From: Gammaproteobacteria bacterium
Lineage (GTDB): Bacteria; Pseudomonadota; Gammaproteobacteria; JAJDYQ01
Direction of reading: 5' to 3'
Length of the DNA: 64,000 bases
Assembly (NCBI GenBank): GCA_965214035.1
Contig: OZ243932.1
Location: forward strand, 1,857,260 to 1,921,259
Position 1 is the first letter of the stretch, and every line of letters starts with the position of its first letter. The notes beneath the pieces are model-generated. The model did not search any database. It was not told where the DNA came from and was given only the letters and a program-made list of their open reading frames with translations. A program made the position numbers and the translations under genes. This document shows, one piece after another, positions 57,931-63,749 of this stretch.

Positions 57931-59306
57931 TGCCACACCGCGCTCTGATTCTTGACGATGAGGCCGATATACTCGAACTCATTGACCTTACATTCTCGCG
58001 CATGGATATCCAGTGCACACTGGCTGAGACCCTGGCTGAGGCCTATAACTTTCTGGACAAGAATGAATATGATCTGTGTATCACGGACATGAGGCTACCG
58101 GACGGAAGCGGCATGGAACTACTGCACAGACTCCAGAAAAGCTATCCGGAATTACCGGTTGCTGTTATTACCGCATTTGGCAGTGCTGATCTTGCAGTGG
58201 AAAGCCTGAAAGCAGGCGCATTTGATTTTATTTCCAAACCTCTGGATCTGGTGAGACTGCGCAAACTCGCCACCAATACGCTTAAGCTGAAAAACGAGCG
58301 TCTGGAAACTACCTCAACCGACAGGCTTCTTCTGGGCGAATCACAGGCCATCAAGCATGTCAAGAAAATGATTCGCAAACTCTCCAGAAGCGAAGCGCCT
58401 GTTCACATCAGTGGCGAATCGGGTACTGGCAAAGAACTGGTAGCTCGGTCCATTCATCAACTCGGCCCAAGAGCGGAAGGCCCCTTTATCCCCGTTAACT
58501 GCGGTGCCATACCTGGAGAACTGATGGAAAGCGAATTTTTCGGCCATAAAAAGGGTAGCTTTACCGGTGCAACCCAGAATAAACAGGGTCTTTTTCATGC
58601 CGCCCAGGGAGGGACGCTGTTTCTGGATGAGGTTGCCGAGCTTCCTCCTCCAATGCAGGTCAAACTGCTGCGTGCCATACAGGAAAGGGCGATACGACGA
58701 GTGGGAGAGCATGACGAGCAACCGATGGATGTCAGGATACTCAGTGCCACTAATAAAGACCTTGCCGCCCTGGTGAAAAAGCAGGAATTCAGAGACGACC
58801 TGTACTACAGGCTGAATGTGATCAACCTGCCCATACCGCCTCTTCGAGAGCGGCATGGTGACATTCCATTATTAACCCGCCATTTCATAGGTCGCCTGAA
58901 AAACAGTCATGGAACGGATATCGAGATCACTGAACCGGCAACCCAAAAGCTGGAGGAATATCATTACCCTGGCAACATCAGGGAGCTGGAAAATATACTG
59001 GAGGGTGCCACCGCCATCTGCGAGGATTATACGATTCAGGCCCATGACCTCAACTTAACTTCCCCCCCACCCCAGACCCAGACTACCGACATGCCGGCAA
59101 AAGCCGATGACAGGCCGGAACGCCCAGTGCAGATAACAGCACGCGGCGAACAGGCACTGTCCGATTATCTGGAACAAATTGAACGATCCGAAATCACTTC
59201 AGTGCTGGAGCAAACACAATGGAATCGAGGCAGAGCAGCCCGAATATTAAAAATAACACAGCGCCAACTGAGGTATCGCATGACCAAACTGGGCATTCAA
59301 GGCTGA
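57930..59306 (+). CDS. pilR: sigma54-dependent response regulator PilR-like (NtrC family)
   Basis: 458 aa; receiver (DMRLPDG), AAA+ sigma54 domain ([14 protein letters not shown]-like [15 protein letters not shown]), C-terminal Fis HTH. Confidence 0.9.
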
Positions 59307-59337
59307 CAAAATCTGTCGCATCAGGACAGATTCTGTC
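59305..59337. promoter_or_regulatory. inverted repeat GACAAAATCTGTC-N7-GACAGATTCTGTC, candidate PilR enhancer
   Basis: Near-perfect palindrome directly after pilR stop, about 170 bp upstream of sigma54 promoter. Confidence 0.5.
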
Positions 59338-59476
59338 AATTCAATAAATAATATATACCCGCCAATTAACTCCTGGTTATCCATGAGGGGAAACGGCGTG
59401 GCCATCTGTTTCCAGACTACCATAGTGCAGAACGCCTTGGTACTGATACAGGATTCAGATGGATCGGTATAGAAAA

Positions 59477-59492
59477 TGGCACGCCACTTGCT
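59477..59492 (+). promoter_or_regulatory. sigma54 promoter TGGCAC-N5-TTGC
   Basis: TGGCACGCCACTTGC with 12-nt GG-to-GC spacing, about 65 bp upstream of pilin ATG. Confidence 0.7.
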
Positions 59493-59557
59493 TGCGATTA
59501 AGATAGCATACTGCTACTTGTTTACAACCTTTTATTATTGACTTTAGGGAGTCTGAA

Positions 59558-59980
59558 ATGAAAAAGATACAATCCGGTTTTACACTGATCGAAGTCATGA
59601 TCGTAGTAACGATCATTGCTATTCTCGCCGCTGTTGCGCTGCCTGCTTACCAGAACTACACCAAACGGTCCCATGTGTCCGAAGGGCTTTCTCTGGCCAG
59701 TGGCGTAAAGGCCTCAGTTGCTGAACACTATGCTGCCAGAGGCAGCTGGCCTGCAGATAGCACAGCCGCCAATATTCCGGGAAATATTGACGGTGAAGCA
59801 GTAACTCAGGTCTATGTATCCAATGGCATAGTCGTGGTCGAGTTCAACCAGAGCGTAGAGGCTGGTAAAAACATTGAATTATCACCTTATGCCGACACCG
59901 GTTCCATTAAGTGGGCATGCAGATCTGCCAATACTGATGGTGTCAGCACATTATACCTTCCCGAGCGCTGCCGTACCTGA
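59558..59980 (+). CDS. pilE: type IVa major pilin (copy 1)
   Basis: [16 protein letters not shown] prepilin leader; C-terminal Cys pair; GGAG RBS. Confidence 0.9.
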
Positions 59981-60002
59981 GTCTCATCCAGCCAAAAATA
60001 TG

Positions 60003-60031
60003 AAGGGGCTTCTTTAACGGAGCCCCTTTTC
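60003..60031 (+). terminator. intrinsic terminator after pilin 1
   Basis: GGGGCT-loop-AGCCCC followed by TTTT. Confidence 0.5.
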
Positions 60032-60367
60032 AGGGTGTGCAACAAAACTCTGCCACAGCATTCTGCAGCTGTAATATCTGCTGCACCTATTGGTCCTTTC
60101 ATACACAATAACCTATCAGGTTACTCCAGAAAGATTGCTCCTGCTTGATGATTTTTCAAAGTCAGGGACACTCGAAAAATACGATAACATCATAAAGCTG
60201 TGAGCTGTTTGCTTCTGATAGTGTCCCGGCAACCTGCCGAATAGCATGTCATCTTGAGATACTCCACGACCCAATCAGATACCAGGATAGACAAAATCTG
60301 TCACATAGCCCGCCAAACGACCTGCTGCCATAAAATATGGCATGACAAATCCAGACTATTCAGAATC

Positions 60368-60400
60368 GACAAAATCTGTCGCATTGGAACAGATTTTGTC
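60368..60400. promoter_or_regulatory. inverted repeat GACAAAATCTGTC-N6-GAACAGATTTTGTC, candidate PilR enhancer (half-site also at 60290-60302)
   Basis: Palindrome about 150 bp upstream of sigma54 promoter of pilin 2. Confidence 0.5.
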
Positions 60401-60542
60401 GGTTCAAACAAAAAAAGAGATTTCCCCCACCAAACATAGCCAGACTATTAATGATAGCATCACACAGTCATATATTCGCCGGCCGGCTATGACACCGAAT
60501 TATCGCCCATGATATGAAACCCAGAGCAGTTCGCATAAAAAG

Positions 60543-60558
60543 TGGCGCACTAATTGCT
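60543..60558 (+). promoter_or_regulatory. sigma54 promoter TGGCGC-N5-TTGC
   Basis: TGGCGCACTAATTGC, correct spacing, about 65 bp upstream of ATG. Confidence 0.7.
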
Positions 60559-60621
60559 TCGCTTCATATGACTTATTACTACTTACCATTTTTTATTAAC
60601 CTAGATTTGAAGGAGCCTGCA

Positions 60622-62002: not shown

Positions 62003-62059
62003 GTGTATTTCTCAGGCTATTAAAACCTTACTTTAATTTACTATCAGAGGGAGTCTGAA

Positions 62060-62482
62060 ATGAAAAAGATACAATCCGGTTTTACACTGATCGAAGTCAT
62101 GATCGTGGTGGCAATCATCGGTATTCTCGCCGCTGTTGCGCTGCCTGCTTATCAGAACTATACCAAGCGAGCCAATGCGACTGAGGGGCTGTCTCTGGCC
62201 AGGGGCGCACAGGCTTCAGTTGCCGAATACTATGCAGCCAAAGGTGTCTGGCCCGCGAGTAACACTGACGTCAGGCTCGGCACTGATACGTATATTGATG
62301 GCGATGTGGTGATCAAGGTCAGGGTAGCGACCGGTGGTAAAATTATTATCATGTATGATGCTGGGGTCGCTTATCACCAAACCCTTGAATTATTACCCGA
62401 AGCTGTCGGCGGTTCTATCAAGTGGACATGTAGCGGTGGCAGCCTATCCAGAGAATATCGTCCGACACGCTGCCGCACGTAA
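62060..62482 (+). CDS. type IVa major pilin (copy 4)
   Basis: [17 protein letters not shown] leader; C-terminal Cys pair. Confidence 0.9.
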
Positions 62483-62505
62483 ATCCCGGCTGTTATAAGA
62501 ACACA

Positions 62506-62531
62506 GAGGGCCTCTCTGGAGGCCCTCTTTG
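62506..62531 (+). terminator. intrinsic terminator after pilin 4
   Basis: GAGGGCCTC-loop-GAGGCCCTC then TTTG. Confidence 0.5.
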
Positions 62532-62734
62532 CCGTGACCTTATATCATTATCACAACTTACTGGTCTGACTAACACCTTCATACAGGGCGATTTACCGAA
62601 CCCATTCAGGCAAATCGCTTCTATCTTAATAATTCTATCAACCAGATGCACCCGGTGAATGCAACAGTAGCGGATATTATCTGAACCTTTAGGCGGCTGC
62701 TCTCATTAACTCTTGCGGCTTTGTAAGTAACGCA

Positions 62735-62790
62735 TGACAAAATCGGGCATCATGAACCGCCCAAATCTGTTACATCAAGACAGATTCTGC
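62735..62790. promoter_or_regulatory. degenerate GACAAAATC ... AATCTGTTACATCAAGACAGATT palindromic element upstream of pilin 5
   Basis: Related to the GACAAAATCTGTC repeats; about 110 bp upstream of sigma54 promoter. Confidence 0.4.
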
Positions 62791-62900
62791 TGGCTCAAAA
62801 TGAAGCAACTAATCTATAGTGATGGATTTTTACTGCCACCATGCTACATGCCTGAACCTGATAAAGGATTACTGCTTGTAATTGGAAGGCCAACAAAAAA

Positions 62901-62916
62901 TGGCACGCTAATTGCT
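62901..62916 (+). promoter_or_regulatory. sigma54 promoter TGGCAC-N5-TTGC
   Basis: TGGCACGCTAATTGC. Confidence 0.7.
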
Positions 62917-62959
62917 CTTTCACTCGTATTGACAACCTGTGAAATTCGAGGAATCTGAA

Positions 62960-63415
62960 ATGAAAAAAATACAGTCCGGCTTTAATCTGATCGAGCTGAT
63001 GATCGCAGTGGCGATCATCGGAATTCTGGCCGTTATCGCATTGCCTGTTTATCAGAACTATACCAAGCGAGCCTACATCATTGAAGGTCTGTCCCTGGCT
63101 AGTGGCGCAAAGGCTGCCGTCTCTGAATACTATTCTGCGCAGGGCAGATGGCCTGTGAGCAACGTTCAGGTCGGCCTTGATAATGCCAATAATATTACCG
63201 GTGAGTCGGTAAACAGCGTTGTAGTGCAGCCCAATGGCGAAATTGCTGTCATCTTCAACGAAAGAGTAAGAAACAATGAATATCTTGTGTTGGTGCCCAA
63301 TACCAGCGGCGGTTCCATCATATGGGAATGCACTCCCGGCACTCTGGACGGCACATATCTTCCGATACGTTGTCGCGACAGGCGCTCCTCGGAGCAGGGA
63401 GAAACAGGGGATTAA
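62960..63415 (+). CDS. type IVa major pilin (copy 5, divergent)
   Basis: [17 protein letters not shown] leader; C-terminal Cys pair. Confidence 0.85.
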
Positions 63416-63458
63416 CAGACCATATATGCGGAAAAATCTGTTTGGCGAGTAATCTGAA

Positions 63459-63638
63459 ATGAAAAAGATACAATCCGGCTTTACACTGACCATCGTTTTC
63501 AACGAAAAGGTACAAGACAACAAAAGGCTTGAATTATCGCCTGTTGTTGATTCCGGTTCCATTGAGTGGGTGTGCCGACCCAGCAGCATCTACAATCCAA
63601 TCGATGAAAAATACCTGCCGACACGTTGCCGTCACTGA
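63459..63638 (+). pseudogene. internally deleted pilin copy (leader + C-terminal D-region only), promoterless
   Basis: 59 codons: [10 protein letters not shown] fused directly to [31 protein letters not shown]...CRH; no TGGCAC-N5-TTGC upstream. Confidence 0.7.
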
Positions 63639-63749
63639 GTCCCTAAGGACAGATTGGATGAAATAGGCCCCGGAGATCGATAGAAACTGCCAATCTGGAC
63701 AGGCGCGAGAATACCCTCTAACCAGAATCCCGGACCACTTGACACAAGA

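Follow-up and report, generated by a model that had tools for sequence, protein, structure and literature searches.

NtrC-type activators are built from REC, AAA+, and Fis-type helix-turn-helix (HTH) domains and oligomerize on DNA. At glnAp2, the NtrC enhancer consists of two dyad dimer sites that share a face of the helix and precede a -24/-12 promoter by 100-200 bp. For the type IV pilin regulator PilR, enhancers upstream of the sigma54 promoter of pilA are already known from Pseudomonas aeruginosa, and sites have been predicted in Geobacter. Here, we describe palindromes upstream of tandem pilin genes in a 64-kb stretch of a gammaproteobacterial contig (OZ243932.1; by "the window" we mean this whole stretch, at its full length). 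We argue that these palindromes are very probably upstream activating sequences (UAS), or enhancers, for the PilR that is encoded directly upstream of them, and that they most likely switch on some, and not all, of the pilin genes. An earlier note on this DNA had listed them as candidate PilR enhancer sites, and this proposal is now supported by the adjacent PilR orthologue, by a motif selected in vitro, by distant loci, and by a reciprocal match to P. aeruginosa.

Some of what is known about PilR can be compared directly to this locus. High-throughput SELEX (HT-SELEX) with purified P. aeruginosa PilR (PA4547) gave the dimeric motif GTGAC-N7-GTCAC, along with a count matrix (PMC8041468, supplement). 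Also, TGT-N11-ACA is quoted as the PilR consensus of Jin et al. 1994 (PMC6058289, PMC8035640). In Geobacter sulfurreducens, PilR sites were predicted upstream of sigma54 promoters, including that of pilA (Krushkal et al. 2010, as cited in PMC6058289). For paired sites of a similar kind, we can also consider S1 and S2 of Myxococcus xanthus NmpR, which have the sequence GCGCA-N5-TGCGC (PMC11841059).

In the window, pilR (57930-59306, plus strand) encodes an NtrC-type enhancer-binding response regulator for sigma54, with the Pfam domains Response_reg, Sigma54_activat, AAA_lid_14, and HTH_8 (a Fis-type HTH). It is 56% identical to P. aeruginosa PilR across 455 residues, and the two proteins have the same GSFTGA loop and the same DMRLPDG phospho-acceptor region; no PilR-specific model from NCBIfam scored above its cutoff for the window's PilR. 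Just upstream is pilS (56311-57930, plus strand), which encodes a sensor kinase of 539 amino acids with the Pfam domains 6TM_PilS (1.9e-37), HisKA, and HATPase_c. (An earlier start is possible at 56200, and the syntenic orthologues have 537-539 amino acids.) With a 6TM_PilS domain in the kinase and REC, Sigma54_activat, and HTH_8 domains in the regulator, these two genes look like a cognate PilS/PilR pair. Downstream of pilR are at least seven type IVa pilin genes in head-to-tail order, as identified by their pilin Pfam domains: pilins 1 to 5 (59558-59980, 60622-61053, 61341-61775, 62060-62482, and 62960-63415), the internally deleted pilin 6 (63459-63638), and pilin 7, which begins at 63814 and continues past the end of the window. 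Six of the genes have their own sigma54 promoter, which matches TGGCRC-N5-TTGCT (6 observed vs 0.2 expected) and lies 63-80 bp upstream of a pilin ATG. These promoters are all on the plus strand, at 59477-59492 (TGGCACGCCACTTGCT, pilin 1), 60543-60558 (pilin 2), 61269-61284 (pilin 3), 61987-62002 (pilin 4), 62901-62916 (pilin 5), and 63750-63765 (pilin 7).

The palindromes are pairs of 13-mers, and the 13-mer GACAAAATCTGTC occurs exactly at three positions. Upstream of pilin 1, the copy at 59305-59317 is followed by an inverted partner, GACAGATTCTGTC, at 59325-59337; we call this pair UAS-1 (59305-59337). Upstream of pilin 2, the copy at 60368-60380 is followed by AACAGATTTTGTC at 60388-60400 (UAS-2, 60368-60400), and its 17-nt arms are 94% complementary. 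In both pairs, the distance is 20 bp from start to start, which for UAS-1 is also the distance between centers, and the spacer is 7 nt. The earlier note had placed palindromes here, upstream of the sigma54 promoters of pilins 1 and 2, with exact coordinates. Relative to the TGGC of the -24 element, the pairs before pilins 1 and 2 begin 172 and 175 bp upstream and finish 140 and 143 bp upstream; the composite center of UAS-1 is about 180 bp 5' of the inferred pilin 1 start, and UAS-2 is about 184 bp 5' of the inferred pilin 2 start. The first arm of UAS-1 overlaps the stop codon of pilR, as the TGA at 59304-59306 supplies the first bases of the first TGAC half-site. The third exact copy, at 60290-60302, is single and lies 78 bp 5' of UAS-2. 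It had been noticed before and described as a half-site. The element is there, and the label is wrong: the 13-mer is intact and reads as a complete single dimer site, and beyond about 7 nt on each side it has diverged from the copy at 60361. Finally, there is a degenerate pair upstream of pilin 5, GCCCAAATCTGTT-ACATCAA-GACAGATTCTGCT, with 3 and 2 mismatches (UAS-5, 62759-62791). It begins 142 bp upstream of the -24 element and is about 150 bp 5' of the inferred pilin 5 start. A degenerate version before pilin 5 had been proposed, and this pair confirms it, except that the 13-mer GACAAAATCGGGC at 62736, which had been included, descends from the pilR codons ATGACCAAACTGGGC and not from a palindrome arm. 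Pilins 1, 2, and 5 each have at least two predicted dimer sites at the distance that is expected of an enhancer (about 80-200 bp).

A comparison to shuffled controls had been suggested as a check, and the palindromes are enriched. With up to two mismatches, GACAAAATCTGTC has 10 matches in the window vs 1.9 expected; none of 100 shuffles reached 10, and 7 of the 10 matches are in the pilin region. Similarly, GACA-N5-TGTC was observed 5 times vs 0.9 expected, with 4 of the 5 in the pilin region. In an unbiased word count of the six upstream regions, the top enriched 8-mer was AATCTGTC (6 occurrences in 2.1 kb vs 2 in 58 kb, p=7e-10), and it outranked the words from the sigma54 promoters.

The palindromes are also conserved. 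We located the loci of relatives (L081-L085) by protein search and scanned about 15-21 kb from each; their PilR proteins are 98% (L081) and 81-83% identical to that of the window. A scan of GTDB genomes with PilR found only relatives at up to 57% identity (Pseudomonas, Marinobacter, xanthomonads, and others). The order sucCD-pilS-pilR-pilin is the same in L081-L085, and UAS-1 is kept in all of them. In four relatives, whose PilR is 81-98% identical, a pair of GACA-N5-TGTC 13-mers, 20 bp from start to start, sits on the pilR stop codon in each, and further copies of the pair precede the -24 element of later pilin promoters by 145-167 bp. In the alignment of the orthologous regions from pilR to pilin 1, the conserved islands are the end of pilR with the palindrome (and an adjacent TTCAA), a short TTCAG(A/G) block that precedes the -24 element by about 25 bp, the invariant sigma54 promoter, and the ribosome-binding site; the rest is diverged and rich in indels. 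Across 12 copies that were anchored on the palindrome, the information per column is 1.57 and 1.61 bits in the two arms, 1.10 in the spacer, and 0.62-0.63 in the flanks, so conservation at orthologous positions is above the background. The consensus for the clade is CTGACAAAATCTGTCA-yATnnr-GACAGATTyTGTCAA.

From L082, L083, and L085 only, we trained a matrix of 17 columns (the clade matrix). Its six best matches in the window are at 59325, 60290, 59305, 60368, 62779, and 60388, all of which are upstream of pilins 1, 2, or 5, and the window has 6 matches of at least 14 bits vs 0.55 expected in shuffles. The arms of UAS-1 score 19.4 bits (rank 3) and 24.2 bits (rank 1), the single 13-mer at 60290 scores 23.8 bits (rank 2), and the arms of UAS-2 score 15.0 and 14.4 bits (ranks 4 and 6). 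The arms of UAS-5, which has an orthologous copy at L081:13109-13141, score 7.0 and 14.6 bits. We also noticed that in almost every copy, the palindrome is followed immediately on its 3' side by AAyTCAAAC (59338-59345, 60401-60409, and L082-L085), and the next 10 nt have 1.2 bits per column. This could be an extension of the PilR site or a separate element; it does not match the consensus for IHF.

Each of the 13-mers in the window contains the GAC-N7-GTC core of the HT-SELEX motif, with the same spacing, and the TGAC is completed by the first base of the pilR stop codon, the T at 59304. Among about 64,000 positions, the HT-SELEX matrix ranks 59303 2nd, 62734 3rd, 59313 10th, 60366 21st, 62757 25th, and 60288 (the single 13-mer, 8.9 bits) 38th. 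So, the sites upstream of pilins 1, 2, and 5 match the experimentally determined motif for PilR, and the regions upstream of pilins show a 15-fold enrichment of matches that score 10 bits or more (p=3e-4). The third-ranked match (12.3 bits) is TGAC-N7-GGCA at 62735-62749, within a remnant of pilR that precedes UAS-5; its parent inside pilR, at 59280, scores 10.6 bits. Pilin 5 may thus have a third PilR-like site.

The HT-SELEX motif also turns up where it should in distant relatives. We considered seven loci in which a pilin gene directly follows pilR and PilR is about 55% identical to that of the window. In these loci, the match in the intergenic region between pilR and the pilin ranks 1st or 2nd across the locus (6th or 7th in L031). 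Often there are two or three sites at offsets of exactly 10 bp (L039 7811/7821/7831; L024 7365/7375/7385; L056 7311/7321), and the same offsets are seen in the clade of the window (59303/59313/59323; L082 11371/11381/11391). Also, the TGA of pilR is the start of the first TGAC half-site of the predicted enhancer in two distant Gammaproteobacteria, L049:3751-3780 (a metagenome-assembled genome from the Methylothermaceae) and L056:7303-7335 (an uncultured gammaproteobacterium).

Two apparent resemblances were set aside. First, in the supplement of PMC8041468, the logo for the TetR family regulator PA5059 appears to resemble the motif, and this is an artefact, as its actual motif is GTATC-N17-GATAC. 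Second, scanning metagenomes for ACAAAATCTGTC-N7-GACAGATT gave a lone match, L086, in a eukaryote-like contig with EGF-like repeats and a fragment of a reverse transcriptase; with 20 bases specified, 1-2 matches would be expected by chance.

The strongest argument that the palindromes are PilR sites is that the match to P. aeruginosa is reciprocal. In two P. aeruginosa pilB-pilA loci (L087 and L088), the region upstream of pilA reads ...ggCTGTCaaaaagTGTCacatccTGTCcg..., about 100 bp 5' of the start that we inferred from the TGGCAT-N6-TGCT promoter. In both loci, the top match of the clade-only matrix is CTGTCAAAAAGTGTCAC (12.3 and 14.5 bits), and the HT-SELEX matrix also puts this site on top (14.3 and 14.2 bits). 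The site includes the TGT-N11-ACA that is quoted from Jin et al. When aligned, the native site CTGTCAAAAAGTGTCACATCCTGTC (L087:2850-2876) and the clade consensus CTGACAAAATCTGTCAcAT nearly coincide.

The two systems are otherwise alike in that PilR is paired with PilS and the target is the gene for a type IVa major pilin with a sigma54 promoter. They share the core and its spacing, (T)GAC/TGTC-N7-GTC(A), and TGTC/GACA-type elements at intervals of about 10 bp. On the other hand, the window has a 33-bp palindrome of the perfect type (GACA...TGTC / GACA...TGTC), while P. aeruginosa has TGTC repeats in the same orientation; the site is about 150-185 bp 5' of the start in the window and about 100 bp in P. 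aeruginosa; and the recognition helix of PilR differs at three positions. Because the pilin gene directly follows pilR in the window, the site overlaps the pilR stop codon, while in P. aeruginosa, pilA is in a separate locus, beside pilB. (None of the Pseudomonas loci that we scanned has a major pilin gene directly downstream of pilR.) Furthermore, unlike in P. aeruginosa, several copies of the site would serve a tandem array of pilins. Like the enhancers for NtrC and NmpR, the window has two dyads that share a helical face and precede a -24/-12 promoter, with different half-site sequences. The NtrC sites at glnAp2 are about 32 bp apart from center to center, as compared to 20 bp in the window. 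In G. sulfurreducens, too, the sites predicted for a PilR-type enhancer-binding protein precede sigma54 promoters, including that of pilA.

If the palindromes are PilR enhancers, then each GACAAAATCTGTC, as (T)GAC-N7-GTC(A), would be the site for one PilR dimer, which would bind via its C-terminal Fis-type HTH, and an enhancer would be two such sites that are 20 bp apart, or two helical turns, on the same face of the DNA. PilS would phosphorylate PilR, dimers of phosphorylated PilR would occupy the paired sites, and PilR would oligomerize into an AAA+ ring. The ring would contact, by looping of the DNA, the closed complex of the sigma54 holoenzyme at TGGCRC-N5-TTGCT, 140-175 bp downstream, and ATP hydrolysis would open the pilin promoter. 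We infer the binding by the window's PilR, its register and stoichiometry, and its effect on transcription from these comparisons.

Several observations weigh against this interpretation. First, the recognition helix is TQRQLRYRM in the window's PilR and TFRSMRYRL in P. aeruginosa, so it is only an assumption that their specificity is identical. Across the loci, the correlation of the residues in the recognition helix with a preference for TGTC or TGAC was too inconsistent to claim. Second, the register is ambiguous, as three overlapping sites of the HT-SELEX type, at 10-bp offsets, fit in the 33-mer (59303, 59313, 59323). In the clade consensus these dyads are A1 (TGAC-N7-GTCA), B (TGTC-N7-GACA), and A2 ((A/G)GAC-N7-GTCA). 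Neighboring dyads share half-site bases, and therefore either A1 with A2, or B alone, could be occupied at one time. Our preferred reading is that A1 and A2 each take up a dimer, at a distance of 20 bp and on one face, because the 13-mer at 60290 is perfect without a partner arm and because GTGAC-N7-GTCAC is found without mismatch in that register at distant loci. In contrast, it is only in register B that L049 and L056 keep the N7 spacing. Third, the copies before the later pilins are related by duplication, so their similarity is partly inherited rather than selected. Fourth, there is no exact match to the IHF consensus WATCAANNNNTTR in 59000-64000 and hence none between the enhancer and the promoter, which also differs from NtrC-type systems. 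Fifth, the sigma54 promoters of pilins 3, 4, and 7 all lack a local site, so either remote activation or another activator must exist.

The relationship between the copies raises the question of whether only the copy beside pilR functions, with the elements at 60290, 60368-60400, and 62759-62791 being passive relics of tandem duplication. A recognizable remnant of the 3' end of pilR precedes every later copy, so they were all copied as one unit. By direct sequence comparison, the remnant at 60338-60367 (plus strand; compare to pilR ...CGCATGACCAAACTGGGCATTCAAGGCT) was copied along with UAS-2, and the remnant before pilin 5 is at 62732-62758 (plus strand), as identified by homology to pilR codons. 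The same kind of remnant is present at L082:12420-12466, where it is still legible as ...RQLRYRMAKSGKG and a stop codon. From these remnants, we conclude that the duplication unit began inside pilR and carried the enhancer along. Also, the copy before pilin 5 is visibly decayed, and pilins 3 and 4 manage without one. Nevertheless, we consider it unlikely that the later copies are relics. Conservation is much higher in their arms than in the adjoining pilR remnant and the flank downstream (1.6 vs 0.6 bits per column); two relatives, L083 and L085, have kept the copies before pilins 2 and 3 in a better state than the one near pilR; and each genome maintains its own distance to the promoter (145/145, 145/146, 167/166, and 172/175 bp). 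We return to PilR enhancers as the explanation for the later copies as well. Since the unit that was duplicated started within the 3' end of pilR, each duplication of a pilin would have brought the enhancer with it. Pilins 1 and 2 would now have an intact enhancer (with the extra site at 60290), pilin 5 a decayed one, and pilins 3, 4, and 7 none. As a side note, some "proteins" of 55 amino acids cluster with full-length PilR in the protein collection, and these may be pilR remnants that were called as genes.

Another regulator, such as a repressor or a second enhancer-binding protein, might bind the GAC-N7-GTC dyad instead of PilR. The window's PilR has a recognition helix unlike that of the protein used for HT-SELEX, unrelated HTH proteins can have short dyads in common, and another activator may exist, given that pilins 3, 4, and 7 and a sigma54-like promoter of pilS (56070) have no site. 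We find this very unlikely, however, as the motif accompanies pilR across the Gammaproteobacteria and begins at the pilR stop codon in the clade of the window, in L056, and in L049. Also, it matches what purified PilR selected in vitro, the native site at P. aeruginosa pilA is matched in both directions, and a location 140-175 bp upstream of sigma54 promoters is where an activator would be, not an operator.

Still less plausible is a role in RNA, in which the pilSR transcript would end in a hairpin that is formed by the palindrome and that serves as a terminator or stabilizes the 3' end, while the later copies would be relics that were carried along. If transcribed, the palindromes are predicted to fold into stable hairpins with energies of -17 and -25 kcal/mol (z -4.8 and -7.1), and the first copy does start at the pilR stop codon. 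However, there is no run of T after the palindromes (AATTCAATAAAT and GGTTCAAACAAAAAAAG), and a terminator scan passes over them and calls GC-rich hairpins with T tails after the pilin genes instead. With tails of AATTCAATAA and GGTTCAAACA and AT-rich stems, these are not intrinsic terminators. Rfam has no match in the palindrome region, and its sole match in the window is a tRNA at 20427, so there is no sign of a known structured RNA. Across the 12 copies, 84.6% of cells are paired vs 83.9% expected from shuffling, and compensatory changes are not in excess; because the arms show no covariation, a hairpin is unlikely. Independent drift of both arms around one consensus is, rather, the signature that a protein-binding dyad would leave. 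Furthermore, the 13-mer at 60290 is perfectly kept even though it has no partner arm, and the copy for pilin 2 is about 340 bp 3' of the terminator of pilin 1. We give almost no credence to the palindromes as recombination sites or hot spots that generate the array by duplicating or exchanging cassettes: palindromes can stimulate rearrangement, and the arrays of two strains of the same species do differ (by two extra pilins, a first-slot allele that is 69% identical, and different regions upstream of orthologous pilins), but the duplication junctions are inside pilR codons, upstream of the palindrome, no recombinase or invertase gene adjoins the arrays in the window or in L081-L085, and the motif is also found upstream of single-copy pilA in distant taxa and in P. 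aeruginosa.

If PilR binds the palindromes, then we must still account for the pilins that lack them. The earlier note had found no clear copy before pilins 3 and 4, and indeed, neither the 287-bp intergenic region before pilin 3 (best scores of 3.9 bits with the clade matrix and 4.3 bits with the HT-SELEX matrix) nor the 284-bp region before pilin 4 (4.9 and 5.2 bits) has a PilR-like site; supported sites score 14-24 bits with the clade matrix. Upstream of pilins 3, 4, and 7, the HT-SELEX matrix ranks nothing better than about 130th. The note went on to suggest that these pilins differ in their dependence on the activator, which is a hypothesis that cannot be judged from sequence: sigma54 promoters always require an enhancer-binding protein, and such proteins can work from about 1-2 kb away, as is established for NtrC. 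For example, the pilin 2 enhancer (0.9 and 1.6 kb upstream) or the pilin 5 enhancer (0.8 kb 3' of the pilin 4 promoter) could serve pilins 3 and 4. The pilin 4 orthologue of L081, another strain of this species, is 84% identical and does carry the pair, at L081:12206-12238.

Pilin 7 had also been credited with a degenerate copy, and this one is not supported. The words CAGATTGG...CCAATCTG are present, in an element at 63648-63696 (GACAGATTGG ... CCAATCTGGACAG), as an 8-bp inverted repeat whose arms are 31-33 nt apart and in reversed order, with scores at the background level: 2.7 bits with the clade matrix (rank 123) and 2.2 bits with the HT-SELEX matrix (rank 1283), as would be expected by chance. 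The maximum for the HT-SELEX matrix in the region upstream of pilin 7 is 6.7 bits. The element is identical in L081, and because L081 is the same species, this is uninformative.

With 98% identity between their PilR proteins, these two strains differ in the pilin array itself. Pilins 2-5 of L081 (array at L081:11604-14837) correspond to pilins 4-7 of the window at 84-98% identity, while the pilins in the first slot are only 69% identical. Pilins 2 and 3 of the window, which share 76% identity, lack counterparts in L081. These differences suggest gain, loss, or replacement of cassettes. Also, pilin 6 encodes just 59 amino acids because of an internal deletion, with the junction GFTL|TIVFNEK; it lies 43 bp behind pilin 5 and has no promoter of its own. 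L081 has a full-length orthologue of 143 amino acids (13808-14239) that is 97% identical over the retained parts. Another part of the repeat unit is a block, TCATACACAATAAyCyAyCAkGT(C), that is found at 60098-60122, 61176-61200, and 61892-61916, about 115 bp 3' of the stop codons of pilins 1, 2, and 3 and just beyond their terminators. On the 3' side of the arrays of three relatives (L082:13193-17556, L083:12935-14869, and L085:13951-19436), there are genes for proteins of 640-650 amino acids without a match in Pfam, except for a weak one to GT_STM0557_N in L085, as well as genes for a glycosyltransferase, a methyltransferase, an aminotransferase, a sulfatase, and a Wzy_C-like protein. These may form a cluster for pilin glycosylation.

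The regulators have a promoter of interest, too. Upstream of pilS is a sigma54-like promoter, TGGTACCATACTTGCT (56070-56085), which is kept in L082 (as TGGCACTATATTTGCT), L083, and L085. We considered whether PilR regulates its own expression from this promoter, and we reject this, as we found no PilR-like site 5' of it; so pilSR may be transcribed with sigma54 and an activator other than PilR. In the divergent intergenic region between sucC and pilS, about 100 bp 5' of this promoter, all four aligned genomes have in common a block, AATACT...CAGGCGACATGTCCAGCCrTAAAA (about 55947-55985), that includes the palindrome GACATGTC.

The predicted PilR sites in the window reveal no new mechanism. What is less ordinary is that they occur in multiple copies within a tandem pilin array, that they were duplicated along with a piece of pilR, that the stop codon of pilR forms part of the first half-site (as in L049 and L056), and that the array differs between strains. 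From these sites, one can draw a cis-regulatory map of this unusual array, showing which of its type IV pilin genes, at least seven in number, have an intact, a decayed, or no predicted PilR enhancer. More broadly, the PilR core, (T)GAC/TGTC-N7-GTC(A), and arrays with 10-bp phasing hold from Pseudomonas to distant Gammaproteobacteria, which will aid the annotation of PilR regulons. A more speculative idea, which is possible but which we think is rather less probable than not, is that the enhancer travels with the unit in which pilins are duplicated, so that every new pilin, copied from within the 3' end of pilR onward, came with a PilR site of its own. Subsequent decay of this site at pilin 5 or its loss at pilins 3, 4, and 7 would then grade the expression of the paralogues from a single PilS/PilR input. 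If so, then these bacteria would have a pilin repertoire that is set at the level of transcription and that differs between strains.

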